Position numbers and translations under genes: made by a program
NCBI GenBank assembly: GCA_965198005.1
Contig: CBDAOI010000004.1
Location: forward strand, 1,952,001-2,016,000
Length of the DNA: 64,000 nucleotides
Source of the DNA: Spirochaetia bacterium
GTDB taxonomy: Bacteria > Spirochaetota > Spirochaetia > SZUA-6 > Bin103
Reading direction: 5' to 3'
The notes under the pieces: model-generated
Databases searched by the model: none
What the model saw: only the letters and a program-made list of their open reading frames with translations
What the model was told of the DNA's origin: nothing
In this document: positions 35,070 to 57,519 of the stretch, piece after piece
Layout: the number at the start of each line of letters is the position of its first letter
How positions within the stretch are numbered: position 1 is the stretch's first letter

Positions 35070-35363
35070 ATGGCGCGGGAACGCCTGTGCTGGGCGCGCG
35101 GCGGATCGCGTCCGACGGGACGCACGAACGGACGAACCGTCAGTTACCTGTGCACTTCGCCGACTGGGTCTGCGGTGCCCGATGATGCGCCGACACTACG
35201 ACGCCAGGCGCCGCCTCGAGCTGACCGGCCACGTCACGCCCATACCCACCCCAGCGCTGGTTGACCTGGTCGGCCGCGTTCCGGGCGCGCCTCCGGAATA
35301 GCCAACGGGCTCCCAGCCCCCGACGTCCTGTCGCGGCCTGGGAGCTACATGCCACCCGTGGCG
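35070..35363 (+). repeat. Outer inverted-repeat arm of ABC cassette 2 (partner about 41712-42006)
   Basis: ATGGCGCGGGAACGCCTGTG...GTTACCTGTGCACTTCGCCGACT...TTGACCTGGTCGGCCGCGTTCCGGGCGCGCCTCCGGAATAGC...ATGCCACCCGTGGC, inverted at 41712-42006. Confidence 0.8.
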
Positions 35364-35512
35364 GCACGGCGGCGTCATCCCGGCCCGAGCGAAGGGTCGG
35401 CATCAAGAATCTCGGCGTCGGGGTAGAGGTGATCAATCGGTGCCCCGTGCGGTTGCAGCGCCGGCGTCCAACGCCTCGATGGCCGGGCGACCTCAGCTCG
35501 GGGTGAGCTGGC

Positions 35513-36463
35513 CTATGGCCGTGCCGAGGCGGCGGCACCGTAGCGGCCGAGGCGGCCGCGCAGCCGCGGGTCGAGCAGGTCGCGCACCGCGTCACCGAAC
35601 ATGTTGAGGCTGTAGACGACGACGGTCAGGCACAGCCCCGGCCACAACGCCAGATGAGGCGCTACCTCCATGTACCGCCGCCCCTCGCGGCTGAGCATGC
35701 CGCCCCAGCTCGGTATGTCCGGCGGCAGGCCGAAGCCGAGAAAGCTCAGCGCCGCCTCCGACATGATCACCCCGCCGACGTTGATGCTGAAGATGATGAT
35801 GATGGGCGCGGCGATGTTGGGCAGCACGTGGCGCAGCAGCGAACGCCGGCGCGAGCTGCCGATTGCCTGCGCCGCCTGGAAGTAGACGTTCTCCTTCACC
35901 CCCAGCACTGCGCCGCGCACCACCCGCGAGGCCGGGATGCCGCCCGACACCCCCAGCACGATGATGATCTGCGCCATCCCGCGGCCGGCAATCGACATGA
36001 TCGTCAGCAGCAACAGCAGCCCCGGGAACGCTATCCAGGCGTCGACGAAGCGCTGCGTCACCAGGTCCAGCCGCCCGCCGATGAAGCCGGTGGTGCCGCC
36101 GATCAGCACCGCCACCACGACGTTGAGGGCCGTGGCGGCCAGCCCCACCGTCAGCGACAGTCGCGCACCGTGGATGAGGCGGCTCAGCAGGTCGCGCCCC
36201 ACGTGGTCGGTGCCCAGCAGGTACTGGGCCGAGGGGGCCTGCAGGCGATCGCGCAGATGGATTTCCTCGAAGCGATAGGGCGCCAGCCCATCGGCGAAGA
36301 TGCTGACCAGCACCAGGAGCAGGATGACGATGCCGCCGGCGGTGCCCAACGGCTGCTCACGCACCAGCCGGCCGAAGAACCGCCGCGCTCCAGCCTGCCC
36401 AGCCGCAGCCGCCCCAGCGGCCGGCTCGGCGCCGGCCGGCGTCAGCTGTGATACGTCACCCAC
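35513..36463 (-). CDS. ABC permease, OppC/DppC type
   Basis: LGTDHVGRD, HVLPN, SFLGFG, SWG, GDAVRDLLDPR. Confidence 0.92.
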   Translation of the reverse strand: MGDVSQLTPAGAEPAAGAAAAGQAGARRFFGRLVREQPLGTAGGIVILLLVLVSIFADGLAPYRFEEIHLRDRLQAPSAQYLLGTDHVGRDLLSRLIHGARLSLTVGLAATALNVVVAVLIGGTTGFIGGRLDLVTQRFVDAWIAFPGLLLLLTIMSIAGRGMAQIIIVLGVSGGIPASRVVRGAVLGVKENVYFQAAQAIGSSRRRSLLRHVLPNIAAPIIIIFSINVGGVIMSEAALSFLGFGLPPDIPSWGGMLSREGRRYMEVAPHLALWPGLCLTVVVYSLNMFGDAVRDLLDPRLRGRLGRYGAAASARP

Positions 36464-36486
36464 GGGCTTCCCTCATTGCTTTTGCC

Positions 36487-37488
36487 TCACTCGTAGCGAA
36501 TCCGCGGGTCCAGCGACGCGTACAGCAGATCGGTCAGCAGGTTAACGAACACCACCACCGTGGCGAAGAACAGGTTCACCCCCGACACCACCGGGTAGTC
36601 GCGGTCATTAAGCGCATGAAGCATCAGCCGCCCCAGCCCCGGCAGGTTGAAGATGTTCTCGATGATGACCGAGCCGCCCACCAGGATCGGCAGCTGCATG
36701 CCCACCAGCGTCACCACCGGGATGATGGCGTTCTTGACCGCGTGGCGTAGGATCACCGACCGCTCCAGCAGACCCTTGGCCCAGGCAGTGCGAATATAGT
36801 CCTGCCGCAGCACCTCCAGCATCATGGTGCGCGTCATGCGCATGGTGCTGGCCGACAGGTAGGTGCCAAGGATCAGGCTAGGGATGAGGAACATACCGAG
36901 GTTGCCGAGTGGGTCTTCCGTGAAAGGAACCCACTTCATCGGTGGCGACCAGGCCCACCAGATGGCCGGGTAGATCATCACCATCGTTCCCAGCCAGAAG
37001 TTGGGCGTCGCCAGCCCCATGATGGCGACCGACCGCCCCACGTAGTCGGCGGCGGTGTACTGGCGCACCGCCGAGTAGATGCCGACCGGCAGGGCTATCA
37101 CCAGCCCGATTACGATTGCCATGACACCGAGCTCAATGGTTACCGGCAATCTACTTAATATCTTCTCCTCTACCGTCCAAGTGCCAAGCAGTGATTTGCC
37201 AAGGCTACCCTGGAGGAGACCTTTAAACTGGGACTCACCGGTAACCCAGTCAGCGGTCGGCAACACTCCTATCCAGCGTCCATACTGCACGTAGACGGGC
37301 ACGTCTAATCCCAGTATACGCATAACAGCTTCACGGTCAATCACCCCCGCTGCTTGCAATTCCTGCCTACCCACCATTACGTCTATTACATCGCCGGGGA
37401 TGAAGCGCACCGAGAGAAAGACCAGGATGCTCAATATGAACAAGGTGGAGATTATGAGCAATAACCGCCTGATGATATAGGCTCTCAT
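36487..37488 (-). CDS. ABC permease, OppB/DppB type
   Basis: MRAYIIRR, PGD, TPNFW, QDYIRTAWAKGL, LDPRIR. Confidence 0.92.
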   Translation of the reverse strand: MRAYIIRRLLLIISTLFILSILVFLSVRFIPGDVIDVMVGRQELQAAGVIDREAVMRILGLDVPVYVQYGRWIGVLPTADWVTGESQFKGLLQGSLGKSLLGTWTVEEKILSRLPVTIELGVMAIVIGLVIALPVGIYSAVRQYTAADYVGRSVAIMGLATPNFWLGTMVMIYPAIWWAWSPPMKWVPFTEDPLGNLGMFLIPSLILGTYLSASTMRMTRTMMLEVLRQDYIRTAWAKGLLERSVILRHAVKNAIIPVVTLVGMQLPILVGGSVIIENIFNLPGLGRLMLHALNDRDYPVVSGVNLFFATVVVFVNLLTDLLYASLDPRIRYE

Positions 37489-37514
37489 GTGATACACCTG
37501 ATTGCGATTCCCCC

Positions 37515-38230
37515 CGTCATTCCGGCGAAAGCCGGAATCCACTTAGACAATCTCGTCGCCTTCTCTCCCCCCATCATTGCGGTGAAAAACCTGCCCCGGA
37601 CTGGATCCGGGGCCGCAATCCACTTAGACAATCTCGTCATATCCCGACACGTCGGGATCGGGACGAAGGGTCTGGGGAGTGTGGGGGGCTGCGATCCCAT
37701 GCGTCGGCCAAATCTTCCCAGTAGGGATTCAACGATTCAAAAAGGGCGACCTTCTTGCTGCGGAGCCAGCCTTTAATCTGTTTCTCCCGCGCAATTGCCG
37801 ACTCGACGTCGTCTGTAGCCTCGTAATGCACGAGCTTTGAGATGTTATACCTCTTAGTAAAACCGTCCACCACCTTGAGGCGGTGTTCATACACTCGACG
37901 CGTCAGGTCGTTGGTCACCCCAGTGTAAAGCGTTCCTCTATAGCTGGCCATGAGGTAAACGTAGTACTGGCTCATTACCTGTCTAAGCCCCCGCACCCAG
38001 AACCGCTCCTCCGCCTTAGGCGGATCATGAACGATGAAAATGGCTGTGCATTTGTCACCCTGAGTCCTTCCAGGAAGGACGAAGGGTCTGGGGCGGTGCG
38101 CAGTTTCCATTGGCGGGGTGGCCTCGCATTGCATACGAGCCACACGCCCCCGACCCCAGATTCTTCGCCTGCGGGCTCAGACGCCGTCCTGAGCCTGCCG
38201 AAGGAATGACATTTTATCAGGAATGACGGC
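37515..38230. repeat. (C/T)GTC-tagged REP-like palindromes flanking a GIY-YIG gene
   Basis: CGTCATTCCGGCGAAAGCCGGAATCCA (37515), GTCATATCCCGAC..GTCGGGAT..GACGAAGGGTCT (37636), TGTCACCCTGAG..GACGAAGGGTCT (38053), AGATTCTTCG..AATGAC (38158-38230). Confidence 0.7.
37637..37975 (-). CDS. Small GIY-YIG nuclease
   Basis: YYVYLMAS..GTLYTGVTNDL.RRVYEH, FTKRY, AIAREKQIKGW.R.KK..L...NP.W.DL. Confidence 0.9.
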   Translation of the reverse strand: MSQYYVYLMASYRGTLYTGVTNDLTRRVYEHRLKVVDGFTKRYNISKLVHYEATDDVESAIAREKQIKGWLRSKKVALFESLNPYWEDLADAWDRSPPHSPDPSSRSRRVGI

Positions 38231-38269
38231 TCCCTCCCAAGTGTCTCTCAGGCAGTCATCAATGACTAT

Positions 38270-38306
38270 GGGAGCTGGGAAGCTTGAGCCTCCCAGCTCC
38301 CTTTTT
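38270..38306. terminator. Hairpin downstream of SBP 2 (T-run on the + strand)
   Basis: GGGAGCTGGGA..TCCCAGCTCCC followed by TTTTT. Confidence 0.55.
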
Positions 38307-38336
38307 CCCTAAGGTGAGCCACAAGGGGTGAACCCA

Positions 38337-40295
38337 CTAACGACCCATTGCTTCCTTCAGCTCACTATCAATCCAGAGGCGGGCGAGGATGGACATATAT
38401 TGCATATCTCCCATCGAGTATTCACCGTTAAAACCTTCGACCCACGGCTGGCTCACCTGAAACCTTGGTTCCAGAGGACCCCATATCTGATTGTGCTGCT
38501 TTATCACGGCCAAATCAAACTCTCTAGATGCCTGCATCTCCTCCTCAACGGTGGTAGCGGCCAAAAAGGCATCATAGGCGGCGGTCAGCTCAGGGGTCTC
38601 GACTCCGCCCACGTAGTCGCGCGTAGATGGATTGTCCGAGCGATAAGCGCGCGTGGACCAGGCAGGGCTCGAAATGGCCATGCCGCCACCGGTAGATGCC
38701 TGCATCTCCTCCTCAACGGTGGTAGCGGCCAAAAAGGCATCATAGGCGGCGGTCAGCTCAGGGGTCTCGACTCCGCCCACGTAGTCGCGCGTAGATGGAT
38801 TGTCCGAGCGATAAGCGCGCGTGGACCAGGCAGGGCTCGAAATGGCCATGCCGCCACCGGTCATCTCATAATCATGTGCTCCTCTCTTAGCGACCCAAGT
38901 CGCCGTGTCATATATATTAATCGTTACATCAACGCCAATATCAGCAAAGTAGCCGGCAGCTATTTCCACATAGCCCAAATCCGAGATGTCGCGGTGAGAA
39001 TAGTCGACCTTGAATCGAACGCCGTCCGCGCCCCGCGGATATCCAGCCTCGTCAAGGAGCTTCTCAGCACCTTCCGGGTCATACCTGTAGTATTGCTTGA
39101 GCTCTTCGGGCCACTCTTCAACTGGGGTGTAATACCCCTTGACGAAAGACACCGCAGGAGATTCCCACTTTGCTAAACCGGCATAGTAGGTATCGTTAAT
39201 CGTCTCGAGGTCCAGTGCCATCTGCAGTGCGTGGCGTACCCTGATGTCGTCAAAGGGCGCGTTGCGAATGTTCAGACCAATGGCAGCAAACGCCGCCTGG
39301 TGATAAAAGCTCGCCTCGAGTTCGGGGTTGGTCTTCTGGAGGCTCTTTACCACGTCTAGGGATTTTATTTCACCGACGCCGGCTTTAGCTGTTATATCAA
39401 TCTTACCCGAGCGTAGTGCCGATATACGTGTTGCTTCTTCTGCCATATAGAGGGCACTTACCTGGTCAATATAGGGCAGGCGGTTCTCAGGGTATTTTTC
39501 GTCGTAGCCCCAGTAGGCAGGATTCTTGGTCCAGGTGATAGAGACGTCTTCGACATAGTCAGTCAGCTCAAAGGGCCCGGTGCCGACCACGTTCTTCCAA
39601 TCCGTATAGTCGCCGTATTGCTCGATTACCTCGGGGGGTAATATCCAGTGCAAAGCTTCGTTGATGATAACCTCTAGCGCATAGACGGACGGCTCCGTCA
39701 GCTTAAAAACAACCGTATATTTGTCGGTGGCCTCTATCGATTCCCATGGCATATTGACAGCAACTCTAGGACTAAGGGGACGTTCGGTGAAGTCACCCAG
39801 AACGGTATTACGCTGCCAGGTATATACGACATCATCGGCAGTTAGCTCCCGACCGTTCATCGGTGCCTTGTTATGCCAGTAAACCCCCTGGCGGATGTGG
39901 AAGATGTAAGTCAGTGGGTCGGGCGTTTCCCAGCTTTCCGCCAGAGACCCTGTGAAGATAAACGTAGGGACATAGGGGTTTCTAAAGTCAAATTCTTTCC
40001 TATCTAGTCCCCAGTCCCCGAGGGCGAGAGTCTCATTAACACTGGCTATGAGGAAGCCCGCATAGCCGCCAGTAACAAAGGGGTCAGTAGTAGAGTAATC
40101 TAATCTATAGGGAAAGGTTAATGTCCCGCCATACTCTGGTGCCACCACGACCTTGCCGGTGGTCGGGTCGGTCACATACTTCTTGTCAGCCGCGGCTGCC
40201 GGTGCCTCTTCTGCGCCAGCGGCCCACAGGCCGGTTGCGGGCAAAACGAGGACCAACGCAATCGCGAAGGACCTTGCAAAAAATATCTTCATCAT
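38337..40295 (-). CDS. ABC substrate-binding protein, family 5, with an in-frame 56-aa tandem duplication
   Basis: Same motifs as SBP 1; 38525-38692 matches 38693-38860. Confidence 0.92.
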   Translation of the reverse strand: MMKIFFARSFAIALVLVLPATGLWAAGAEEAPAAAADKKYVTDPTTGKVVVAPEYGGTLTFPYRLDYSTTDPFVTGGYAGFLIASVNETLALGDWGLDRKEFDFRNPYVPTFIFTGSLAESWETPDPLTYIFHIRQGVYWHNKAPMNGRELTADDVVYTWQRNTVLGDFTERPLSPRVAVNMPWESIEATDKYTVVFKLTEPSVYALEVIINEALHWILPPEVIEQYGDYTDWKNVVGTGPFELTDYVEDVSITWTKNPAYWGYDEKYPENRLPYIDQVSALYMAEEATRISALRSGKIDITAKAGVGEIKSLDVVKSLQKTNPELEASFYHQAAFAAIGLNIRNAPFDDIRVRHALQMALDLETINDTYYAGLAKWESPAVSFVKGYYTPVEEWPEELKQYYRYDPEGAEKLLDEAGYPRGADGVRFKVDYSHRDISDLGYVEIAAGYFADIGVDVTINIYDTATWVAKRGAHDYEMTGGGMAISSPAWSTRAYRSDNPSTRDYVGGVETPELTAAYDAFLAATTVEEEMQASTGGGMAISSPAWSTRAYRSDNPSTRDYVGGVETPELTAAYDAFLAATTVEEEMQASREFDLAVIKQHNQIWGPLEPRFQVSQPWVEGFNGEYSMGDMQYMSILARLWIDSELKEAMGR

Positions 40296-40500
40296 TTCTT
40301 CCTTGGATGTTATTTCGGGAGTATTGCGGAGCGGATTGCCGCTCCCTGGCTACTCTGACGCCCGCAACCGCGGGCGCGCCCGCCAACGCGGGCGACCAGT
40401 CTGAGTCAAATTTGTGAAGCGCGCGGCGTGTGACTCACCGGGTTCACCCGGGCTCACGCCGCGCGCGCGTGCGGTTCTTTCAGTATCATTCGAACCTCCT
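40296..40500 (-). promoter_or_regulatory. Conserved structured leader, copy 2, with uORF MILKEPHARAA (40489-40454)
   Basis: AGGAGG RBS; uORF differs from copy 1 only by synonymous CTC>CTG and GAG>GAA. Confidence 0.7.
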
Positions 40501-40837
40501 TCTTCGCTAGATCTACGTCGGGATCTGCGCTACAACGCCACGCGTGGCGGTGGTCTGAGCAGCAGTGAGTCTGAATGGCCGGCAACGCCGGCGGTGGGTT
40601 TTGCGGGCAGTCAGTCGCGGGCAGCGATCCGGGACGGCTGCGGTCGACGGGAAGGGCGCGGGCGGTCCGCATGCCGGTTCGGCGATGGACCGAGCCGGCG
40701 CCACGGATAGCTACGGCGGTGGTGAAGGCGACGGCGTGCGCGGGGTCGCGTAGGGCGCGATCAGCCGGAGCGGTTAGTTGTTTCTCGGTCTCGGTTTGAA
40801 AAGTTGGGGGAGGGGGATGCACTGGCTGCGTCACAAC

Positions 40838-41625
40838 TAACCGGTCACTGCGCTGCCTGTCATCGTGACCCTTCATGACCATCCGTCGAACCCCAGGTGA
40901 GGCACGCTAGCATAGGCGCGGCGCGCCGTCAACGACTCGTGGGGGTCACCGGGGTGAGCGAAGGTCACCGGCAACCCGTCACTGCGCTGACTGTCACCAT
41001 GGCGCTTCATCTCCGATCCGTCCGACCCCAGGCGAGGCAAGCTTGCTATGGACGCGACCACCCGGTCAACCACTCGGAGCTCACCAAACGTGAGCGCCAA
41101 CCGGTCACTGCGCTGACTGTCATCATGGCGCTTCATCGGCATCCGTCGACCCCAGGCCAGGCATGATAGCGTGGGCGCGGCGCACTGTCAACGTTTCGGA
41201 GCTCACCAAACGTGACCGCCAACCGGCCACTGCGCTGACTGTCATCATGGCGCTTCATCATCGATCCGTCGAACCCCACCCCAGGCGAGGCAAGCTTGCT
41301 ATGGACGCGACCACCCTGTCAACGACTCGGACGTCACCGACCGTGACCGCCAACCGGTCACTGCGCTGACTGTCATGATGGCGCTCCATCCGCATCTGAT
41401 CAACCCGAATCACCATCTTCCGCGGGCGACTCAGAAAAGTCAACGGCGATTCTGGCCTCGTGCACCTTGCCACGCCCGGCTCTGCGATTCGGCTGAACTT
41501 GCGCGCCTCACCCCTAACCAGTCACTGCGCTGCCGCCATCCTGGCGCGTCGTCGTGGCGCATCATCTGCATTCGCCGAACCCCTAACGGTGCAGTCTCTC
41601 GCGAGCGCGGCCACCCTGTCAACAG
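40838..41625 (-). repeat. Array of about 5 diverged 120-140 bp units, each with a TTGAC box on the - strand
   Basis: GTCAA on + at 40928, 41065, 41187, 41318 and 41618; shared GCGAGGCAAGCTTGCTATGGACGCGACCACC and ACTGCGCTGACTGTCATCATGGCGCTTCAT. Confidence 0.85.
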
Positions 41626-42693
41626 CGCCGCCCCCTGCGTGCGCGGCCGACCGGCAGCCGGGGCGGTGTCACGCCCGATGCCCGGTGACCTCCACCCGTG
41701 GCGTCTCCCTGGCGCCACGGGTGGCATGTAGCTCCCAGACCGCGACAGGACGTCGGGGGCTGGGAGCGGTTTTGCTATTCCGGAGGCGCGCCCGGAACGC
41801 GGCCGACCAGGTGAACCAGCGCCAGGCTGTGTATGGGCGTGACGTGGCCGGTCAGCTCGAAGCGGCGCCTGGCATCGTAGTGTCTGTGCATCATCGGGCG
41901 CCGCAGACCGAGTCGGCGAAGTGCACAGGTAACTCATCACACGACTGACGCGTCGTCCGTTCCTGGGCCCCGTCCATGGGGCCCAACACAGGCGTTCCCG
42001 CGCCATGGAGGGCAAGCGTGCGGCTGTCCTGTGGACAGCTCGGGGCGCGTCCGGAGCAACGTGCACCATCATGCTCACCAGCGCCGAGTCATGGAACCCG
42101 CTGGCCGAACCGGTCAGTCTGAAAGCAGCGACTGGCATCGCAGGGTCTGTGCATCATCGTGGCGAAGGTCGGAGGCCACGCCACACGAGCCGTGAACCCG
42201 CTCCCCACCGACCGTCGGCAGGCCGCTCGGGGAACAACACCACTGACCTCGGGGTGAGTCCGGCGGGGAAGCCGGCACCAGGTACCTCACCACACGACTG
42301 ACGCGTCGTCCGTTCGTGGGCAGACACGGTCGGTCGCGAACAAGGGGCCTTCGCGCTCCCTCTGAATCGGCCAATGGTAGCGCTGCCACCTCCCATGTGC
42401 CTCCGCCCGCGGACTGCGTCGCTGCCGGCCGATGCCCCATGGGCTACGACAAGGTGCGCCGCCGCTTCATCGGCCGCGGCAGAGTTCGTAATCGGTGACC
42501 TCCACCCGTGGCGCCCTCCCTGGCGCCACGGGTGGCATACGGCCCACAGACCACGACACGAGGTCGGGGGCTGTGGGCTGCTTCGAACTCCGGAGGCGGG
42601 TCCGGAAGGCTGCTCAACAGGGCAGCCATCGCCGGGCTCCGCATGGGTGCTGCGGCGCCGGTCAACTCGAAGCGGATGCTCCGATCTGGACCC

Positions 42694-43290
42694 TCAGTAC
42701 TCGTCGTCGCAGAAGCCGTCGCGGAAGGTATGGGGCACCACCCAGTAGCCGTCGACCGTGGCGAACAGATCGGAAGCCACCACCCGGCAGTAGGCCGGCG
42801 CCGCAGGCGGCCGCGAGGCCACTACGAACAGCGGCTTAAGATGGTAGAGACTCGATCGAAACACGTGCCGGGAGCCTGGACCCCACTGCCGGTCGGCAGG
42901 CCGCTCGGGAAACAGCACCACCAGCGAGCTGCGCTTGACCAGCCACAGGGTGCGCCGCGCCAGCGCTGCGTTGGGCGGGATGCCCTCGGGCACCACCGCC
43001 GAGGCGAACAGCCCCTCGGCCCGGCAGCGCCGTGCGCGCTTGCCGAACGCGCAGCCGACGAACACCTCGTCGGGGCCGCATTCTGAGTCAGCCAGCGCCT
43101 TGCGGAAGGCGGCATCCACCCCGGCCGCGCAGCCCACGAAGAACCCAAACCCGTGCCGGCGAAACTGCTCGATCAGCGCTCGGCAGGTCGAGGGCTCCAC
43201 CTGCCCGCAGCGGCTGCCGGCCAACAACACCGAACGCGCCGCCACGTTGAACTGCAGCGCGGCATCGCCTGCTACCTGAAATGTCACCAT
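42694..43290 (-). CDS. SLOG-superfamily protein, copy 2 (left inverted arm)
   Basis: Close paralogue of 32411-33007; AGGAGG RBS. Confidence 0.7.
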   Translation of the reverse strand: MVTFQVAGDAALQFNVAARSVLLAGSRCGQVEPSTCRALIEQFRRHGFGFFVGCAAGVDAAFRKALADSECGPDEVFVGCAFGKRARRCRAEGLFASAVVPEGIPPNAALARRTLWLVKRSSLVVLFPERPADRQWGPGSRHVFRSSLYHLKPLFVVASRPPAAPAYCRVVASDLFATVDGYWVVPHTFRDGFCDDEY

Positions 43291-43346
43291 TCATCGCACC
43301 TCCTGGTACTTGGTTGCCAAGCGATTTCGCACGCTGCTCCCGGCAG

Positions 43347-47141: not shown

Positions 47142-47241
47142 GGAGAGGGAACCGAGAGCGCAGATCGCGCGACGAAAGTGCTTGACTGCTAGGAACCGAG
47201 TGCGAAAGCGCCTGGCAACCAAGTACCAGGAGGTGCGATCG

Positions 47242-48257: not shown

Positions 48258-48592
48258 CCACGAACGGACGACGCGTCAGTCGTGTGATGAGGCTTCGCCG
48301 AGTCGGTCTGCGGTGCCGCGGTGCCCTGGCGCTGCTTCGGGCTGACCGGCCACGTCACGCCCATAACGAGCGCGGCGCTTGTCGACCTGGTCGGCCGCGT
48401 TCCGGGCGCGCCTCCGGAGTAGGACGCGGATGTTACTACCGAATAGCGAAGGTATTGTAAACAGCCGGTGCAGCTCTGACTCGCGCAGGGGATCGAGAAT
48501 AGCCACCAGGCTCCCAGTCCACGACGTCCTGTCGCGGGCCGGGAGCTGCATGCCACCCGTGGCGCCATGGAGGGTGCCTCGGGTGGAGGTCA
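48258..48592 (+). repeat. Inner inverted-repeat arm of ABC cassette 3 (partner 54374-54634 + 57078-57185)
   Basis: Shares an ~80 bp insert (GTAGGACGCGGATGTTACTACCGAATAGCGAAGG...) only with the 54.4 kb arm. Confidence 0.85.
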
Positions 48593-48629
48593 CGCTGCAT
48601 CAGACGTGATACCGCGGGGGGTGCCGGTC

Positions 48630-49745: not shown

Positions 49746-49947
49746 CCGACTACCGACTACCGACTACCGACTACCTAACCGCGCGACAGCCAGCCGCTCG
49801 GCGCCGGTGCTGACCGCGGCACCATCGATCCGCGCGGCACACAGCCGTGCGTGTGGCGGCGGACCGCGTCGGCCGCAACCTCCACCAGTCTACATCAACC
49901 GGCGTTGCCGGGACTTCAGAAGAGAGGGGCACATCTGCGCCCGACCG

Positions 49948-50139
49948 AGGGGGTGCAAAATGATACTCAAAGAGCCGCACGCGCGCGCGGCGTGAGCCGG
50001 GGTGAACCCGTTGAGTCACACGCCGCGCGCTCTTAGTGAATTTGACTCAGACTGGCCGTCTGCGTTGCGGGCATGAGAGTAGCCAGGGAGCGGCAAGTCG
50101 CTCCGCAATACTCTCGAAAATCAAGATCCGGAGTTACGC
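49948..50139 (+). promoter_or_regulatory. Conserved structured leader, copy 3, with uORF MILKEPHARAA (49960-49995)
   Basis: GAGGGGG RBS; same hairpins, with one small hairpin missing. Confidence 0.7.
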
Positions 50140-51939
50140 ATGAACTTTGTAAAAATTAGAATGACCTTCGCGTTTGCGTTGGTCCTCGTAATGACCGCAA
50201 CCGGCCTCTGGGCCGCTGGCGCAGAAGAGGCGCCGGCAGCCGCCGCCGACAAGAAGTACGTGACCGACCCCACCACCGGGAAGGTGGTGACCGCGCCAGA
50301 GTACGGCGGGATAATCACCTTTGCCAGGCGGGGTGACCCTCCGCATTGTGACTCCTTTTTCTCGCACGCGCCGGGAGTGGTCACTAGTGGCGTTGCCGAG
50401 AAGCTAGTCCACGGGAACTGGGGAATAGATAGGGACGAACGCGACTTTCGGACTGGCTTCAATCCTCCATCTGCCATGATAGGACAACTGGCTGAAAGCT
50501 GGGAACAACCCAACGACACAACTTATATCTTCAACATCCGCCAGGGCGTTCACTGGCATGATAAGCCCCCGATGAACGGTCGGGAGTTAACTGCCAAGGA
50601 TATAGAATATAACTATCAGCGTTATACTGGTCTAGGCAGCGGCTTCACCGAACCTAGCCCCTATATTGGGGATTTGCTCACCCGTGAGCCATGGGAATCG
50701 ATAACCGCTACCGACAAATGGACGGTTGTTTTTAAGCTGAAGAGGCCATCAGCCACTGCGCTGCATACTATCTTCGATAGCGCGTACAATTTTATATACC
50801 CCCCCGAGGTAATCGAGCAATACGGTGACTTAAAGGATTGTAAGAACCTGGTCGGCACCGGGCCCTTTATGCTAACTGAGTTGGTCGAGGGCAGCTCTGC
50901 GACCTGGATGAAGAATACTGACTACTGGGGCTACGACGAAAAGTACCCAGAGAACCGCCTGCCCTACGTTGACGAGTTAAGGGGCCTGATTATGCCAGAA
51001 GACCCAACACGTCTGGCGGCACTGCGCACGGGTAAGATTGATTACCTAGGTCACCTCGGCACCTCTCAAATATTTACTATCGACGAGGCAGAGAGCCTCC
51101 GGCTGACCAACCCTGAAATCGAACTGCATACGTTTGTCTTGCGGTCAGAAAACTCTTTTGTTGCTGGCATACGCCCCGACAACCCGCCCATTAACGACCT
51201 CAAGGTACGCATAGCAATGCAGAAGGCGTTGGACCTTGAGACAATTAACAATACCTACTTTAGGGGTTGGGCAGACTGGAAACCTATGGGGATTAATGGC
51301 ACTGGTTTAAAGGGGTATCACATCCCATTTGACGAGTGGCCCGAAGAGCTCAAGCGAGAATATACCTATGACCAGGAAGGGGCCGAAGCGCTCCTTGATG
51401 AGGCCGGGTATCCGCGCGGCGCCGACGGCATTAGATTCAAGACCGTCTTGAACCACCTCGATCGGTGGGATTTAGGCTTTAGAGAATTGGTTGCCTCCTA
51501 CTGGGCTGAGATTGGCGTTGATATTGAGATTAGGGAGATGGACGGAACCAAAATTGGCGCTATGATACGCGAACATACTTATGAAGGTATCGCCGATGGA
51601 ACTCCGGGCTACGAGGAGGGACCTCTGAAGCAGGTAGCCTGGTTTACCTCGGACTCATCATGGAACCCCCCTAATGTCAGTGACCCGGTTTATGACGCCA
51701 TGATTGAAGCCGCCGAAGCTGCTACCGGTGAGGAGCAGAAGAGGCTGATTACAGAGGCAGATATGTACGTTATAAAAAACCACTGGTTTATATGGGGTGG
51801 TAGAGCTCCACAGTTTAGCGCGAACCAGCCGTGGCTCATAGGTCATAACGGTGAAATGGCACTAGGAACCATGGACTTTATTGGCCCCTTCGCCCGCTTC
51901 TGGATTGATTCCGAGCTGAAGGAAGCAATGGGTCATTAG
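50140..51939 (+). CDS. ABC substrate-binding protein, family 5
   Basis: WAAGAEEAPAAAADKKYVTDPTTGKVVTAPEYGG, LAESW, VGTGPF, LDEAGYP. Confidence 0.92.
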   Translation: MNFVKIRMTFAFALVLVMTATGLWAAGAEEAPAAAADKKYVTDPTTGKVVTAPEYGGIITFARRGDPPHCDSFFSHAPGVVTSGVAEKLVHGNWGIDRDERDFRTGFNPPSAMIGQLAESWEQPNDTTYIFNIRQGVHWHDKPPMNGRELTAKDIEYNYQRYTGLGSGFTEPSPYIGDLLTREPWESITATDKWTVVFKLKRPSATALHTIFDSAYNFIYPPEVIEQYGDLKDCKNLVGTGPFMLTELVEGSSATWMKNTDYWGYDEKYPENRLPYVDELRGLIMPEDPTRLAALRTGKIDYLGHLGTSQIFTIDEAESLRLTNPEIELHTFVLRSENSFVAGIRPDNPPINDLKVRIAMQKALDLETINNTYFRGWADWKPMGINGTGLKGYHIPFDEWPEELKREYTYDQEGAEALLDEAGYPRGADGIRFKTVLNHLDRWDLGFRELVASYWAEIGVDIEIREMDGTKIGAMIREHTYEGIADGTPGYEEGPLKQVAWFTSDSSWNPPNVSDPVYDAMIEAAEAATGEEQKRLITEADMYVIKNHWFIWGGRAPQFSANQPWLIGHNGEMALGTMDFIGPFARFWIDSELKEAMGH

Positions 51940-51962
51940 AGGCTTCATCCCCTTTTTTTTGC

Positions 51963-52016
51963 GAGCTGGGGAGCCGCCTCCGAGCGCACTATTGAGCGGC
52001 TTCTCGGCTCCTTTTT
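51963..52016 (+). terminator. Probable intrinsic terminator after SBP 3
   Basis: GAGCTGGGGAGCCGC...GCGGCTTCTCGGCTC followed by CTTTTT. Confidence 0.5.
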
Positions 52017-52065
52017 CCGCTTGTCTAGGAGAAGAAGGACCAAGGCGAATTGGGAGAACTTATAA

Positions 52066-52347
52066 GTGATACCTATGGTCAAATAGAATCAATCGATCTA
52101 AAATCGGTGGTGCTGGATCCTCGCAATCCTTGAAGAGATCCTAGAGGAATCTCCCACGGCAGCAATAAAGGTGCTATGGGAATCGGAGGATCAATCTTGT
52201 ACTAGCGCTCTTTGGTCATGTACTGTCGGAAGATGGGAAATTGATTGGAAAAGGGATGAAATGATGTACATAATCGAGGGTGAATCGGAACTCGCAGATC
52301 AGTTCGGACACTCTCAAGCATTTGCGGCGGGTGATTTTTCATGTTAG
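52066..52347 (+). pseudogene. Cupin (DUF861-like) remnant, AT-rich
   Basis: Manual translation ...SALWSCTVGRWEIDWKRDEMMYIIEGESELADQFG..FAAGD with stops upstream. Confidence 0.6.
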
Positions 52348-52436
52348 CAGGAGGCTAAGACGATGTGGAATGTAGAACGGCCTCTTCTGAAGATCTTTTA
52401 ATTTTCGCCGATGAATCCCGAAAGGTTCTGGCTGCC

Positions 52437-53402
52437 ATGAGAGCCTACGTCATCAGGCGGCTCTTACTACTCCTCCCCACACTGTTTATCATGTCCGTCC
52501 TGGTCTTTCTGTTGGTCCGCTTGATCCCCGGCGATGTAATAGACGCTATGGTGGGTGAAATTGTGTTCTATGGTAGAGGTGATACAGCAGTAGACCGTGA
52601 AGCTCTTGAGCGCATGCTTGGATTAGACGTACCTGGCTACGTGCAGTATGGACGTTGGATAGGAGATATTATTCTGCATGGCACCCTTGGCGACTCACTG
52701 ATTGGCGGTTGGAGAGTGGAGGAGAGGATACTAGGTAGACTGCCGGTAACTATTGAGCTTGGCCTCATGTCGATCGTCATTGGGCTGGTGATAGCACTGC
52801 CGGTCGGCATCTACTCGGCGATTCGCCAGGATACGGCCCCCGATTTCCTGGGGCGCTCCGTCGCCATCATCGGCCTGGCAACGCCGAACTTCTGGCTGGG
52901 GATCATGGTCATGCTATACCCGGCAGTGTGGTGGGGCTGGTCGCCACCGATGGAACTGATTCGGTTCACGGAAGACCCGCTGGGCAGTCTCGGAGTGTTC
53001 ATCATCCCGAGCCTGATTCTGGGTACCTACCTGTCTGCAGCCACCATGCGGATAACGCGGACGATGATGCTAGAGGTGCTGCGGCAGGATTACATCCGGA
53101 CGGCCTGGTCGAAGGGTCTCAAGGAGAGGGTGGTTGTGGTACGGCACGCTGTCAAGAATGCCCTCATCCCGATCGTTACCCTGGTGGGCCTGCAGTTTCC
53201 TATCCTGGTGGGTGGCTCGGTCATCATGGAGAACATATTCAACCTACCGGGGGTGGGTCGTCTCATGGTGGCCGCGCTCACCGACAGAGACTACCCGGTG
53301 GTCTCCGGAGTAAACCTGTTCTTCGGCACGGCGGTCGTGGGGGCCAATCTCATGATCGATCTGGTTTACGGCTACCTGGATCCGCGGGTCCGTTACCAAT
53401 AG
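52437..53402 (+). CDS. ABC permease, OppB/DppB type
   Basis: MRAYVIRR, PGD, TPNFW, QDYIRTAWSKGL, LDPRVR. Confidence 0.92.
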   Translation: MRAYVIRRLLLLLPTLFIMSVLVFLLVRLIPGDVIDAMVGEIVFYGRGDTAVDREALERMLGLDVPGYVQYGRWIGDIILHGTLGDSLIGGWRVEERILGRLPVTIELGLMSIVIGLVIALPVGIYSAIRQDTAPDFLGRSVAIIGLATPNFWLGIMVMLYPAVWWGWSPPMELIRFTEDPLGSLGVFIIPSLILGTYLSAATMRITRTMMLEVLRQDYIRTAWSKGLKERVVVVRHAVKNALIPIVTLVGLQFPILVGGSVIMENIFNLPGVGRLMVAALTDRDYPVVSGVNLFFGTAVVGANLMIDLVYGYLDPRVRYQ

Positions 53403-53413
53403 CACGCGCGGGA

Positions 53414-54289
53414 ATGGCTGCTTTCCTTGTCAGGCTGTGGCGAGAGAAATCACTCGGTGCTATCAGCGGGATCATCATCCTGATATTGATTCTCGTGGCT
53501 ATCTTTGCCGATGCTGTGGCCCCGTATGAGTATCTCGAGATACACTTGGCAGACCGGCTGACCGGCTCATCAGCCGCGTATCCGCTGGGTACCGACCACT
53601 TGGGACGAGACCTGTTGAGCCGCATCATCTACGGGGCGCGGCTGTCGTTGATCGTCGGTCTGTCGGCGACTGCAGTGAATGTCGTGGTCGCCGTGCTGAT
53701 CGGCGGCACGTCAGGATTCTTCGGCGGACGACTCGATCTTGTCGTGCAGAGATTCGTCGATGGCTGGATGGCCATCCCGGGACTGCTGCTGTTGTTGACG
53801 ATCATGTCCATCGTAGGGAAGGGGATGCCACAGCTGATACTGGTCCTGGGGATATCAGGAGGCATCGGCGGCTCGAGATTGATCAGAGGCGCCGTGATAG
53901 ACATCAAGGAGAATGCCTATTTCCAGGCGGTCGAGGTGATTGGCGCCTCGAAGTGGCGGACATTCATCGGCCATGTCCTGCCCAACATCATGCCGGTCGT
54001 GATCATCGTCTTCAGCATCAACGTCGGCGGGGTGATCATCAGTGAGGCTTCGCTGAGCTTCCTCGGCTTCGGTCTGCCCCCCGACGTTCCCAGCTGGGGA
54101 GCGATGCTCAGCCGCGAAGGGCGTCAGTACATGCAGCAGGGGCCATGGCTGGCTCTCTGGCCCGGTCTCTGCCTGACGATTGTCGTCTACAGTCTGAACA
54201 TGTTCGGCGACGCGGTGCGTGACCTGCTTGACCCGCGGCTGAGGGGTGGCGGGGGACGCCTGGGAGCCGATGCCGCCAGGTCGGTCTAA
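53414..54289 (+). CDS. ABC permease, OppC/DppC type
   Basis: LGTDHLGRD, HVLPN, SFLGFG, GDAVRDLLDPR. Confidence 0.92.
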   Translation: MAAFLVRLWREKSLGAISGIIILILILVAIFADAVAPYEYLEIHLADRLTGSSAAYPLGTDHLGRDLLSRIIYGARLSLIVGLSATAVNVVVAVLIGGTSGFFGGRLDLVVQRFVDGWMAIPGLLLLLTIMSIVGKGMPQLILVLGISGGIGGSRLIRGAVIDIKENAYFQAVEVIGASKWRTFIGHVLPNIMPVVIIVFSINVGGVIISEASLSFLGFGLPPDVPSWGAMLSREGRQYMQQGPWLALWPGLCLTIVVYSLNMFGDAVRDLLDPRLRGGGGRLGADAARSV

Positions 54290-54713
54290 GAGAGCGCGCC
54301 TGCGGCCGCGCGCGCGGGTGCCCGTCCACCCCACTCAGCAGGCAACCTTCGGGGTGTCACGCCGGATGCTCGGTGACGTCCACCCGTAGCGCCCTCCCTG
54401 CGCCACGGGTGGCATGTAGCTCCCGGCCCGCGACAGGGGCGTCGTGGGCTGGGAGCCTGGTGGCTATTCTCGATCCCCTGCGCGAGTCAGAGCTGCACCG
54501 GCTGTTTACAATACCTTCGCTATTCGGTAGTAACATCCGCGTCCTACTCCGGAGGCGCGCCCGGAACGCGCCCGACCAGGTCAACCAGCGCCGGGCTGTG
54601 TATGGGCGTGTTCGGCCGGTCAGTCCGAAGCAGCGTAAGCGTCCGGTGGCCCCCACCTACCGCGGCTGAGAATGGAGGGTTCATAGTCTCTCGACCGAAG
54701 ATAGGAGGGGCGA

Positions 54714-55034
54714 ATGAGACTGGGACGAGAGCACTGGATAGGGCAGGTGGAGGCGTGGCGCAGCAGCGGTCTGAGCCAGGCGGAATACTGCAAGCGCCAC
54801 CAGGTGGTGTACAACACGATGAACGGGTGGGCGCGCCGGCTGGCGGCCGAGCGAGAGGACGCCGATCGACCGCTGGTGGAGCTGAAGGCGTCACCGACCA
54901 TGACCGCCAGCGACCTGGAGCATCGCCCGGCGATCGAGCTGGTGGTGGCGGGCCGGTATCTGCTGCGGCTGTGGCCCGGGACGCGGTGCGAGCAGCTGCG
55001 TGAAGTGATCACCGTCCTGGAGGAGCGGCAGTGA
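54714..55034 (+). CDS. tnpA: IS66 accessory protein
   Basis: W...VEAWRSSGLSQAEYC..H.V....W. Confidence 0.85.
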   Translation: MRLGREHWIGQVEAWRSSGLSQAEYCKRHQVVYNTMNGWARRLAAEREDADRPLVELKASPTMTASDLEHRPAIELVVAGRYLLRLWPGTRCEQLREVITVLEERQ

Positions 55035-55384
55035 TCGGGCTGGATCTGGGCGAGGCGCGGATCTTCGTGCGCCCTGGGGCCACCGACATGCGCAAGCAGA
55101 TCAACGGACTGGCGCTGATCGTGCAGGAGCAGATGCAGATGAGCCCGTTTGATCCGACGCTGTTCGTGTTCTGCAACGCACAGCAGCGGATTCTCAAGGC
55201 GCTGTACTGGGACCGCACCGGGTTCTGTCTGTGGATGAAGCGGTTGGAGAAACATCGGTTTCCCTGGCCGCGCAACGCCGCCGAGGCGCGCCAGCAGATC
55301 GACGAGAGCCAGCTGCGGCTGCTGCTGAGCGGCGTGAATTTCTGGAGCCGGCACGAGGAACTCTTCTATACAAAGGTGGGCTAA
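55031..55384 (+). CDS. tnpB: IS66 accessory protein
   Basis: TDMRKQINGL, LFVFCN, KALYWD.TGF.L..KRLEK.RF.WP. Confidence 0.92.
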   Translation: MIGLDLGEARIFVRPGATDMRKQINGLALIVQEQMQMSPFDPTLFVFCNAQQRILKALYWDRTGFCLWMKRLEKHRFPWPRNAAEARQQIDESQLRLLLSGVNFWSRHEELFYTKVG

Positions 55385-55436
55385 ACCCCTGGGCTAACCA
55401 TTGCCTGCCCGACATTGTCCGTGCTAGTTTTGGTTC

Positions 55437-57020
55437 GTGGCCGACAGCCTGACCCTCACCAGAGAGAACCAGAAGCTGCGGTCCGAGAACCAGGAGCTAA
55501 CCGTCCAGACCAACGAGCTGACCATCGAGGTTAGACAGCTGGCCATTAAGCTGGAGGTCGTCAACGACGAGCTGGCCAAGATCAAGAGCCGATTCTTCGG
55601 CCGTGCCAGCGAGAAGCTGAGCGTCGAGGAACGGCAGCAGATGCGGCTGTTCGACGAGGCGGAACAGGCCGCCGCCGAGAATCAGGAGCAGCCAGCCCCG
55701 ACCGAGGCGGCCACCGAGGTGCCGACGCACACCCGCCGCAAGCCGGTACGTCGGCCACTGCCGGAGTCACTTCCTCGCGAAGAGGTGGTGGTGGACATCA
55801 GCGACCAGGACAAGCACTGCAAGTGCGGTCACCAGATGGTACGCATCGGCCAGGAGGTCTCCGAGCGCCTCGACGTGATCATGCCGAAGGTGAAGGTGAT
55901 TCGCACGGTGCGGCCCAAATACGCCTGCCATCACTGCGAAGGCTCCGGGGACGAAGATCGACCTGCGGTGCGCATCGCGCCGGTGCCCAAGACGCTGATC
56001 CCGAAGGGCATCGCCACAGCCGGGCTGCTGGCCTTCATCGTCACCGCCAAGTTCTGCGACGCGTTGCCGCTCTACCGGCAGCAGAGTCAGTTTGCCCGCA
56101 TCGATGTGGATCTGCCACGCAGCACCATGGCCGACTGGATGCTGACTACCGCTGTCGCGTGCGAGCCGGTGATGAAAGAGATGCAGCGCAAACTGCGTTC
56201 AGGCCCGGTGCTGCAGGTGGACGAGACCAGGATCCAGGTGATGAAAGAAGAGGACCGAGCCAACACCACCCAGAGTTACATGTGGGTGGCCCGCGGTGGT
56301 CCGCCCGGCGAGCCGGTGCTGATCTATCACTATGCCCCCAGTCGTGGCGCGCCGGTGGCCGAACAGATGATCGGCGACTACGAAGGGTTTGTGCAGACCG
56401 ACGGCTACGAGGCCTACGATCGCAGATGCGCAGGCGATGGCATCGCCCATGTGGGTTGCTGGGCGCACGGCCGGCGCGGGTTCACCGACGCCAAGGAAGC
56501 TGCCACCAAGACCGCCAAGAAGGCGGGCGCCGCCGAGCAGGCGCTGGCGTTCATCGCCAAGCTGTATGGGGTTGAGTCACAACGCGACAGCTATGCCAGC
56601 CTCGATGAGTTCAACCAGGCCAGGCGAGCCCAGGTGGAGCCGATCCTCGAGAAACTGCGGACCTGGCTCCATGCCAAGAGCGACCAGGTTCTGCCTGGTT
56701 CAACGCTCGGCAAGGCGGTCGCCTACATGCTCGGGCAGTGGCCCAAGCTGACCCGCTACCTGGACTCCCCCCACCTCACTCCCGACACCAACGCCGTCGA
56801 GCAAGCCATCCGACCGTTCGTGCTGGGTCGCAAGAACTGGCTGTTCTCCGGCAGCCCACGCGGCGCGGCCGCCAGCGCCACTCTCTACAGCCTCATCGAG
56901 ACCGCCAAGGCCAACCGCCTCGAGCCCTACCACTACCTACGCGAACTCTTCGAGAAGCTGCCGCTGGCCAAGACTCCCGCCGACTACCGAGCTCTCATCC
57001 CCAAACGACGGGTCTACTAA
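55437..57020 (+). CDS. tnpC: IS66 transposase
   Basis: FGRASEK, zinc ribbon, LPLYRQ, VDET, QTDGY.AY, CWAH.RR, DTN..E..IRP..GRKNWLF. Confidence 0.95.
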   Translation: MADSLTLTRENQKLRSENQELTVQTNELTIEVRQLAIKLEVVNDELAKIKSRFFGRASEKLSVEERQQMRLFDEAEQAAAENQEQPAPTEAATEVPTHTRRKPVRRPLPESLPREEVVVDISDQDKHCKCGHQMVRIGQEVSERLDVIMPKVKVIRTVRPKYACHHCEGSGDEDRPAVRIAPVPKTLIPKGIATAGLLAFIVTAKFCDALPLYRQQSQFARIDVDLPRSTMADWMLTTAVACEPVMKEMQRKLRSGPVLQVDETRIQVMKEEDRANTTQSYMWVARGGPPGEPVLIYHYAPSRGAPVAEQMIGDYEGFVQTDGYEAYDRRCAGDGIAHVGCWAHGRRGFTDAKEAATKTAKKAGAAEQALAFIAKLYGVESQRDSYASLDEFNQARRAQVEPILEKLRTWLHAKSDQVLPGSTLGKAVAYMLGQWPKLTRYLDSPHLTPDTNAVEQAIRPFVLGRKNWLFSGSPRGAAASATLYSLIETAKANRLEPYHYLRELFEKLPLAKTPADYRALIPKRRVY

Positions 57021-57519
57021 CCGTTTTCCACCGCTCCTTGCCGCCCACACCGGCGGTGCGGTTCCCCGGACGCTTACGAAGCAGCGCCTGGCATCATGTT
57101 GTTGGCGCATCATCGGGCACCGCAGACCGAGTCGGGGAAGTGTACAGGTAACTCATCACACGACTGACGCGTCGTCCGTTCGTGGGCCCCGTCCATGGGG
57201 CCCACCATAGGCGTTCCCGCGCCATGGAGGGCGCGGGCGATTGCGCGCGTCCGGAGTCACCACCCATCACGCTCACCAGCGACGGGTCATGGAACCCGCT
57301 GACCGAACCGGTCAGTCTGAATGCGCATTCCGGTGAACCTTTCCAGTGAATCCGGTGGAACGTTACCACCGCCGACGCGTGAGGCGTCATCTCGATGCTG
57401 GTTAGAAGTGGTAAGTTTGGTCCTCCCCCGGAGGGTAGGTCAAGGTGTATTCGGGTGATTGTCAGAGCACTGCTCCCTCTTAAAAACAGGTGGCGGTAAA
57501 AGGGGGTGGGGGTCCGGGG

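Follow-up and report, generated by a model that had tools for sequence, protein, structure and literature searches.

The yeast 2-micron circle is a small element that unites a tyrosine recombinase with two long inverted repeats and a means of replication. Among bacteria, the tycheposons of Prochlorococcus are reported to target tRNA genes and in some cases to carry nutrient-uptake operons (bioRxiv 10.1101/2020.12.28.424599). In Acinetobacter plasmids, dif modules are reported to be flanked by pdif sites of 28 nt that have an 11-6-11 structure and are served by Xer recombinases (PMC6449649, PMC13141974, PMC7399989, PMC12907356). Here we analyse a stretch of 64,000 nt from a Spirochaetia bacterium (assembly GCA_965198005.1, contig CBDAOI010000004.1, positions 1,952,001 to 2,016,000 of the forward strand), hereafter the window, numbered from its first letter. 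A sequence-only reading had pointed to a recombinase-primase-XRE core at the centre of a mirror of ATP-binding cassette (ABC) transporter cassettes, and had suggested that the core might capture, amplify or shuffle them. Our analysis shows that the core, enclosed by two inverted arms, is a real mobile module, apparently an unnamed one. We consider it probable that a widespread mobile element with its own replication module integrated here and that this copy has since partly decayed, and that the transporter cassettes beside it are not its products.

Results

A mobile module enclosed by gene-bearing inverted arms

The most complete copy of the element (copy 2) occupies 6.0 kb (42285-48292, no strand assigned) and consists of a left arm, a tyrosine recombinase gene (43347-44327, minus strand), a primase-helicase gene of 747 codons (44429-46672, minus strand), a gene for an XRE-type helix-turn-helix (HTH) regulator that is divergent from the primase gene (46731-47141, plus strand), and a right arm. 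The window is GC-rich. Genes were picked by their third-position GC content (GC3), and with a GC3 of 0.83 the minus strand is the coding strand of the 747-codon gene. The sequence-only reading had named the three core genes at or near these positions, and its account of the gene content holds, apart from the strand on which it had placed the large gene. Literature searches returned no published description of this gene combination, in line with the earlier proposal of an undescribed element; such a negative is not proof of absence.

The two arms are about 1.1 kb long, and each of them carries a gene of about 198 amino acids (aa) of the SLOG type. The left arm (42285-43387, minus strand) contains the SLOG gene at 42694-43290 (minus strand), a hairpin segment termed HPa (42495-42673) and a terminal site (42288-42315), and the right arm (47144-48292, plus strand) contains the same parts at 47242-47838 (plus strand), 47858-48042 and 48262-48289. 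The arms are 83% alike overall and up to 87% in sub-stretches (42460-43387 against 47145-47841 and beyond). Their alignment (47145-48292 against 43387-42285, 83%) fixes the ends of copy 2 at 42285 and 48292, and other copies in the genome stop at the equivalents of 48242-48292. Thus, the inverted repeats and their SLOG genes, the latter judged by fold model, stand as earlier claimed, with outer ends that had to be moved to 42285 and 48292.

The recombinase is Xer-like and the large protein resembles a replication protein

The recombinase matches nearly the whole Pfam profile of Phage_integrase (PF00589; positions 2-168 out of 172, E 1.7e-40) and has an N-terminal SAM-like domain (PF13495, E 7e-11). 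In an alignment of seven recombinases, R156, K181/K184, R258, H281 and Y290 are invariant, and we take these to be the catalytic residues. NCBIfam models of XerC (scores of 260.8 and 213.9 against cut-offs of 371 and 335.15) and XerD (224.1 against 329.6) remained below their cut-offs. By these scores, the protein is Xer-like without being a XerC or XerD ortholog. With scores of 135 and 67.2, integron integrase (IntI-type) models likewise fell short of their cut-offs, which are 265 and 435. In related elements from metagenomes, two recombinase genes, REC-a and REC-b, typically follow the primase gene. The recombinase in the window is of the REC-b type, being 54-59% identical to the second recombinase of those elements, and is the sole complete copy in the genome.

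For the primase-helicase, local Pfam, NCBIfam and PADLOC searches and PDB sequence profiles gave no match. A homologue search retrieved 151 proteins at E ≤ 0.001, the full-length ones being 47-63% identical. Nearly all of them lie on contigs of 2-15 kb and have precomputed Pfam matches to PF27228, with or without PF08275, and it is through these homologues that the gene is assigned to the PF27228 family. Their source names include Planctomycetes, Promethearchaeota and Spirochaetales metagenome-assembled genomes (MAGs). In the atlas, PF27228 is listed as MTBMA_p00010_2nd, beside Toprim and DnaG_N families. We modelled the protein of a second copy of the element (copy 1, described below) with AlphaFold from 14 sequences and compared the model by Foldseek. 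Over its N-terminal ~250 aa, the model resembles the RNA-polymerase domains (catalytic cores) of DnaG proteins, with E values of 6e-10 to 5e-7 and target template-modelling (TM) scores of 0.45-0.57 across ~245 columns, and with a predicted local distance difference test score (pLDDT) of 74-92 over the N-terminal ~200 residues. The C-terminal part matches MCM chains at E 1e-5 to 1e-3, but with a root-mean-square deviation of 12-20 and with large parts below a pLDDT of 50. A Walker-A-like SRSSAGKS motif is invariant across the family. Taking model and motif together, we read the large protein as a putative fusion of a DnaG primase with an MCM-like P-loop helicase, that is, as a candidate replication protein of the plasmid or phage type.

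The regulator is an HTH_3 protein (Pfam, E 1.2e-13) that scores 58 bits with an RstR-like NCBIfam model, under the cut-off of 80. The arm-encoded SLOG protein had no Pfam or NCBIfam match, and no match from PDB profiles had an E value under 0.5. A model built from seven family members (mean pLDDT 64.9, core 75-88) matches DprA (4ljk, 5mll, 3maj, 3uqz), ShosA (8zva), the SLOG domain of ThsA (7uxs) and YpsA (2nx2), at Foldseek E values of 5e-6 to 7e-4 and TM scores of 0.43-0.54, with DprA chains from three species reaching 0.54. A DprA-like SLOG identity of the predicted protein is therefore supported at the level of the fold. Within the genome, the left-arm protein is just 84-86% identical to the other full copies.

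Related elements recur across phyla, with mostly defence-type cargo where annotated

An alignment-based scan of metagenome contigs yielded 80 related loci, most of them on contigs that are cut short, so that a missing part does not equal absence. Two recombinase genes follow the primase gene at 28 loci and one at 7, a divergent XRE gene lies upstream of the primase gene at 32, and a SLOG gene takes the outer position at 10. At two loci (L034 and L046), SLOG genes are seen at both ends in inverted orientation. The canonical layout reads SLOG (minus), XRE (minus), primase-helicase (plus), REC-a (plus), REC-b (plus) and SLOG (plus). Within one element, the arms are 94% (L046), 98% (L034) or 92% (L077) alike, whereas primase-helicases compared between elements show a divergence of 40-50%, which means that the arms of an element evolve in concert. 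A scan of genome contigs with a single protein found five loci, all of them close relatives or fragments. In a contig of a MAG labelled Bryobacterales (L022; compare L018-L021, from Spirochaetia MAGs), 96 aa of the primase-helicase are conserved at 99% identity, reflecting either a very recent cross-phylum transfer or a binning error.

We annotated the cargo of eight of the 80 loci, chosen for having room for it. The genes beside the primase gene are mostly of an anti-phage or defence type. L046 carries HamA, a DEAD-box/ResIII-type helicase that we read as HamB, and an OLD-like ATPase; L040 carries PDC-S54, an HNH protein and a D12 methylase; L077 carries PDC-S11 and L044 a TOTE AEP-helicase. 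SduA_C at L066 and a SAVED protein at L075 belong to the same set, their placement inside the arms not being demonstrable. L034 holds a PAD_porph protein and, outside the arm, a Schlafen AlbA_2 protein, and L043 holds two DUF1670 proteins. The sequence-only reading had associated such modules with Rhs or polymorphic-toxin loci, a link that did not show up in the organism's own genome (90% complete), where the search for RHS_repeat gave no match. It had also proposed to tabulate the cargo next to the core in related MAGs; none of the 80 loci gave an ABC cassette match.

Given this cargo, we asked how well the element would fit a helper-dependent phage satellite, similar to phage-inducible chromosomal islands or P4, that carries defence genes. 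The combination of a recombinase, an XRE regulator and a primase-helicase with defence-type genes in relatives would suit such a satellite, and atlas clusters of related primases include Uroviricota members. However, the cargo open reading frames (ORFs) of the annotated loci comprise no packaging, capsid or interference genes, a scan of IMG/VR returned no relatives, and neither a tRNA nor a transfer-messenger RNA (tmRNA) gene is located at the element ends. In addition, we know of no satellite having long gene-bearing inverted arms or a recombinase pair, which we also count against this explanation. Overall, a satellite origin appears improbable. Concerning RNA genes as integration targets, the window contains no tRNA gene at all, which speaks against integration of the tycheposon type. 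Its tmRNA gene (9081-9428, minus strand, 134.7 bits) is not at the end of either element copy; we rejected it as an attachment site, as it lies 20 kb from copy 1 and its orientation also argues against this role.

A second copy and the integrity of the assembly

A second core, noted before, was confirmed as a left-truncated element (copy 1, 29137-33433, no strand assigned). It retains the recombinase N-terminus (29097-29498, minus strand), the primase-helicase (29665-31842, minus strand), the XRE gene, a SLOG gene (32351-33007, plus strand) and a terminal site (33403-33430). Aligned to 43966-48292, it shows 81 mismatches in 4354 columns and 8 indels.

Element pieces are present at 95-99% identity in four public sequencing runs from four studies, with contigs of about 150-1200 nt that are too short to judge assembled order, inversion or excision, and stretches that they leave uncovered carry no weight. 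The contigs of all four of these runs do not have an extra base that copy 2 shows at 44712-44713, which could reflect a private mutation or an error in the sequence. The region also contains two tandem duplications that are exact (100%), one of 208 nt (34300-34717) and one of 168 nt (38525-38861). The latter lies in frame inside a transporter gene, the substrate-binding protein (SBP) gene of the left cassette, which encodes 652 aa compared to ~600 for its paralogues. Each duplication either happened very recently or was introduced by the assembly.

Such exact duplications, together with a base missing from every other run, are what one might cite in support of the view that the core copies or the arms were produced by mis-joined repeats. 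Collapsed or duplicated repeats would be identical, however, whereas the copies differ by the 81 substitutions and 8 indels given above and the arms by 13-17%. Moreover, the same architecture recurs in independent metagenome contigs, and the element pieces reappear in the data of four separate studies. We regard an assembly origin of the element as very unlikely.

The transporter cassettes are members of a genus-wide family

On both sides of the core, the order reading outward is hairpin repeat, unit array, leader, SBP, OppB, OppC and again hairpin repeat, as the sequence-only reading had described. The left cassette (35513-41396, minus strand) comprises OppC (35513-36463), OppB (36487-37542), SBP (38337-40295), a leader and an array of ~122-nt units (40839-41396). 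The right cassette (48693-54289, plus strand) comprises arrays (48693-49755), a leader, SBP (50140-51939), OppB (52365-53402) and OppC (~53399-54289). A third cassette, also noted earlier, is located at 16819-20772 (Pfam). The left and right cassettes are diverged, as had been stated, and form no fresh palindrome: their permease DNA is 73-79% alike, and their proteins are 70-73% (permeases) and 48-49% (SBP) identical.

These cassettes belong to a very large family. By tblastn at more than 70% coverage, the genome contains 143 SBP, 149 OppB and 144 OppC full-length copies in addition to many fragments, and the resulting ~145 cassettes make up 12% of its 4.9 Mb. In line with this, a genome-wide BLAST of the region gave 100-190 matches over the permease genes. 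Identities between paralogues centre at ~70% for the permeases and at 45-50% for the SBPs. Ranked among 128-140 paralogues, the left and right cassettes are each other's 36th and 79th match for SBP, 76th and 69th for OppB, and 62nd and 43rd for OppC.

These ranks bear on the possibility that the mirror arose by local inverted duplication, a palindromic amplification of cassette and arm followed by divergence. The equal order of parts on both sides and array units that are 93-95% alike would be expected from such an event. Yet with ranks of 36-79 the two cassettes lie at the median distance of the family and are no product of a local duplication. In addition, the left OppC has a 98.7% identical copy elsewhere (C4:690241), and inverted arms are a trait of the element family in unrelated hosts. 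We therefore find this scenario barely credible.

The expansion extends to related genomes. In a search of 30 relatives, first-look permease candidates numbered 83-364 in the better-assembled genomes of the same genus. Among ten other same-genus genomes, the primase-helicase was found in two and the SLOG gene in three, and neither was found in eight sister-genus genomes. Three genomes of the genus (G007, G009 and G010) have 167, 95 and 83 permease candidates at this first look, but no primase, SLOG or terminal-site match. It follows that the element did not build the cassette family, and the cassette expansion is shown to be independent of it. The cassettes beside the core are average-distance members of this genus-wide family that face away from it by chance. 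The earlier suggestion that the module amplifies cassettes finds no support, given the ~145 copies spread over the genome, their expansion in genomes without a match to the element and the left and right copies not being closest paralogues.

Several further features of the cassettes were observed. While the left OppC is 98.7% identical to the copy at C4:690241, the adjacent OppB has its best match, of 86.7%, at another locus (window 35513-37542 compared with C4:690241 and C3:145574). Sequence identities of this kind suggest that cassettes are mosaics that may have undergone gene conversion among paralogues. The cassettes are without an ATPase gene of their own, and the genome has only eight oligo_HPY (OppD/F C-terminal) matches, or about four ATPase pairs, which the ~145 cassettes seem to share. 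The gene directly after the third cassette, in a position that would suit an ATPase gene, encodes a 669-aa PPDK_N and PEP-utilizers protein (20891-22900, plus strand).

Tandem arrays of ~111-138-nt units precede the SBP genes, at 40839-41396, 48693-49755 and also at 16155-16251. In the right cassette, two units have the form TTGACA-18-TACAAT/TACACT, and near-consensus boxes occur in some array units, giving three promoter-like sites compared to 0.3 expected. A promoter-like site was noted for the left cassette as well. The ATG that follows the promoter-like units sits in a 173-codon open frame that fails the GC3 filter. Genome-wide, 99 array units were found, before 30 of the 143 SBP genes, and similarity to the leader is present before 83 of the 143. 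The left and right array units are 93-95% alike, although the genes of the two cassettes are 73-79% alike.

A dif-like terminal site and truncated element ends

The site at the outer end of the right arm (48262-48289, plus strand) is a 28-nt dif-like sequence, GAACGGACGACGCGTCAGTCGTGTGATG, in which 11-nt arms surround 6 nt. By reading, the arms GAACGGACGAC and GTCGTGTGATG pair as inverted repeats at 7 of 11 positions. Other copies in the window start at 33403 (plus), 41935 (minus), 42288 (minus) and 57154 (minus), so that a minus copy and a plus copy of the site bracket the element itself. Across the genome, 26 copies were found at up to six mismatches, most of them with none or one, compared to zero in a reversed-genome control. 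Conservation is 80-100% at the site positions, as against 30-60% in the left flank. Over 21 genomes, the site count tracks the element: 25 in the window's own genome (G000), 13 in G001, 5 in G003, 5 in G005 and 1 in G006, with none in the other 16.

The flanks of the sites fall into seven left and three right classes that occur in 12 combinations, including all four pairings of several class pairs. Exchange of DNA at the site would be expected to produce such a reassortment. At three loci, two sites stand in direct orientation with a gap of 307-338 nt, where other loci have a single site.

Next to the right-hand site lies a hairpin repeat, HPb (48293-48658, plus strand), which is composed of a SLOG 3' remnant and an HPa-like core. 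Further copies in the window lie at 41559-41968 (minus), 35106-35372 (plus) and 54308-54653 (minus). HPb is 75-81% alike to the segment right after the SLOG gene (47858-48042), and its first part resembles the SLOG 3' end. From this likeness, the hairpin repeats are identified as truncated element ends, tied to the dif-like site. An insertion of the IS66 family (54654-57115, plus strand, with orfA-like, TnpB and transposase genes by Pfam) parts the distal repeat from its site, and the match to 48256-48317 resumes at 57187-57116. In the genome, there are 61 HPb-type matches, about two-fifths of which (~25) are located 17-230 nt past an OppC gene. We tried and rejected the hairpin repeat as a general cassette boundary, with only 8 of the 143 SBP genes having one within 2.5 kb upstream. 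At gathering thresholds, Rfam gave nothing in the hairpin repeats or the arrays, and its sole matches elsewhere were the tmRNA and a fragment of a group II intron.

The loop motif ACGTCCTGTC of the hairpin after the SLOG gene is kept both in the window (48509-48547) and at locus L118 of a divergent relative (G029, contig C13, 13765-13793). The SLOG protein of L118 is only 46-47% identical, and the stem sequence of the hairpin differs. The kept loop hints at a conserved structured element.

Taken together, the arm alignment, the hairpin repeats as truncated ends and the cassette family resolve the mirror into three things seen together: the inverted arms of the element, truncated element ends beside cassettes, and two divergent cassettes.

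Other mobile DNA is abundant in this part of the window, and the stretches 24152-26851 and 54654-61637 are a mobile-DNA graveyard. Apart from the IS66 insertion, we found IS21-type IstA/IstB pairs at 25074-26851 (plus) and 59068-61637 (minus), and a further tyrosine recombinase (24152-25159, minus), represented in the genome by four copies that are at least 98.5% alike. At 57546-57723 (plus), a match to group II intron D1-D4 (51.1 bits, cut-off 49) has no reverse-transcriptase ORF beside it. It lies within a repeat of ~830 nt with near-identical copies at C2:11068-12706 and C4:277415.

Discussion

As a working model, we propose that the element's recombinase pair would cut and rejoin DNA at the terminal sites, and that the freed element would be replicated by the primase-helicase, both functions being kept silent by the XRE protein. 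At the arms, the DprA-like protein may act on single-stranded DNA or in the loading of RecA, an activity that would also maintain the similarity between the arms. Recombination at the sites has probably reassorted the flanking DNA, and a few site-bounded cassette modules were possibly moved or flipped in the process.

Some of our findings weigh against this model of an integrated mobile element standing apart from the cassettes. With regard to mobility, both local copies are damaged: copy 1 has neither the recombinase body nor any of the left arm, and the extra base at 44712-44713 in copy 2 causes a frameshift in its primase gene. The two primase-helicase genes furthermore differ in length by 27 nt, with a 9-aa gap in copy 2 at ~46307, beside the Toprim motif. 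No REC-a homologue was found in the genome. The model of the helicase part has low confidence, with a pLDDT below 50 at residues 430-498 and 542-616. Circular or excised forms were not seen, neither as matching ends in the 80 metagenome contigs (0 of 80) nor in the short contigs of the four public runs, and the IMG/VR scan gave no relatives. An opposite-strand joint between 42461 and 48224, found in two runs with sides of 29-32 nt, is expected from inverted arms with indels and was not counted. A comparable terminal site was not found in the divergent relative G029 or at the divergence points of L034/L041 and L043/L044, which leaves the site established within this genus alone. With regard to the cassettes, a cassette gene lies within 2.5 kb on the hairpin-repeat (right-flank) side of 20 of the 26 sites, compared to 3 of 26 for the opposite side and an expectation of 22% for random one-sided positions. 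Likewise, 13 of 19 loci with element remnants are within 3 kb of a cassette, as against 36% of the genome, these loci not being independent. The nearness of element remnants and sites to cassettes is hence not pure coincidence. Both local copies look impaired, and any shuffling may be historical.

This nearness leads to the possibility that the element's recombinase acts on 28-nt sites bracketing cassettes, which would be inverted, excised as circles and re-inserted in the manner of dif modules. The geometry is suggestive. The gene neighbouring a site is an OppC whose end lies 0.3-0.5 kb away, or else an SBP that starts at a distance of 1.2-2.4 kb. At three places, inverted (plus/minus) site pairs enclose four cassettes in total: 33403/41935 with the left cassette, 48262/57154 with the right one, and C4:1584285/1599104, where the site-bounded stretch C4:1584285-1599131 holds two. 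In a relative (G003), inverted sites likewise enclose a 98% identical ortholog of the right cassette, whose outer flanks are different. The one-sided cassette bias, the reassorted flanks and the direct-site doublets found beside single-site forms point in the same direction. Against this, a site is near only ~20 of the ~145 cassettes, and only four are bracketed. The 98% segment shared by G000 and G003 stops at 49948 and 54343, inside the sites rather than at them, with the hairpin repeat there only 76-77% alike. The flanks of the G003 cassette are not collinear beyond the cassette body, and an empty site is not definable. The sole complete recombinase is without its usual partner, and no joint of an inverted or excised module appeared in the short contigs of the four public runs. 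On balance, we see the shuffling of cassettes by the element as a possible, if unlikely, account of the locus. Of the earlier suggestion of capture and shuffling, the link between sites and cassettes survives (20 of 26 sites, three site pairs), while amplification does not and none of the 80 related loci has an ABC cassette. Judged by the sites and their flanks, limited shuffling similar to that of dif modules is plausible but unproven.

A bolder picture would combine these strands. A cross-phylum, self-replicating family with self-homogenising, DprA-encoding arms would have seeded its dif-like sites, dozens of them, beside uptake operons in a sponge-associated spirochaete lineage. This would have created a chromosomal counterpart of the dif modules, in which the element's Xer-like pair flips, excises and exchanges cassettes, and arms and recombinase might even raise the copy number of the free element by amplification of the 2-micron type. 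We consider this far-reaching version doubtful.

Regardless of how the sites relate to the cassettes, the preferred reading, a mobile element with its own replication module, makes the locus of broader interest. Known parts, namely an Xer-like pair, a primase-helicase and an XRE regulator, occur in a layout for which we found no description. Kilobase-long arms that each encode a DprA-like protein are nearly identical within an element, and internal slots carry anti-phage systems in several phyla. The element is thus a possible carrier of defence genes and a system in which to test the upkeep of long gene-bearing inverted ends. The one-sided bias of sites beside transporter operons offers a testable route by which a few uptake cassettes might be moved or inverted. 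The larger oddity of this genome are the ~145 SBP-permease cassettes themselves, occupying 12% of it, with arrays of promoter-like units in front.

Comparison with known systems

At the level of single proteins, the large protein belongs, by the Pfam matches of its homologues and by atlas clusters, to the PF27228 (MTBMA_p00010) family of plasmid and phage primase-helicases. It differs in that local Pfam gave no match, and in its setting, an inverted-arm element with Xer-like recombinases not being part of the family description that we saw. The arm-encoded protein appears, by its modelled fold, to resemble DprA/Smf, ShosA, the SLOG domain of ThsA and YpsA. Unlike DprA/Smf and other SLOG proteins, it consists of only ~198 aa, forms a protein by itself and has two genes, one in each arm of a mobile element.

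At the level of the whole element, the yeast 2-micron circle shares the combination of a tyrosine recombinase, long inverted repeats and a replication function. The present element, in contrast, is integrated in the chromosome, its proteins are unrelated, and a circular form was seen in none of the 80 contigs. With tycheposons, as reported, it has in common a tyrosine recombinase, a small primase/helicase replication module and cargo. It differs from them by its two inverted SLOG arms, by the recombinase pair that is usually present and by the mostly defence-type cargo of its relatives. Among elements that join a recombinase and a replication module to adaptive cargo, the tycheposon may be the nearest analogue.

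For the sites and the stretches between them, the dif modules of Acinetobacter plasmids, as reported, offer the closest parallel. The sites described here are chromosomal and mark the outer ends of inverted arms of 1.1 kb that carry genes, the element brings its own Xer-like recombinase or recombinases and its own replicon, and the modules hold nutrient-uptake operons, with recombination at the sites deduced from reassorted flanks. Both systems, however, use 28-nt sites of the 11-6-11 type whose alternating orientation brackets gene modules, both show flanks reassorted around a conserved site, and both involve Xer-type recombinases. On this analogy, the Acinetobacter dif modules are probably the nearest mechanistic counterpart of the sites and modules in this spirochaete.

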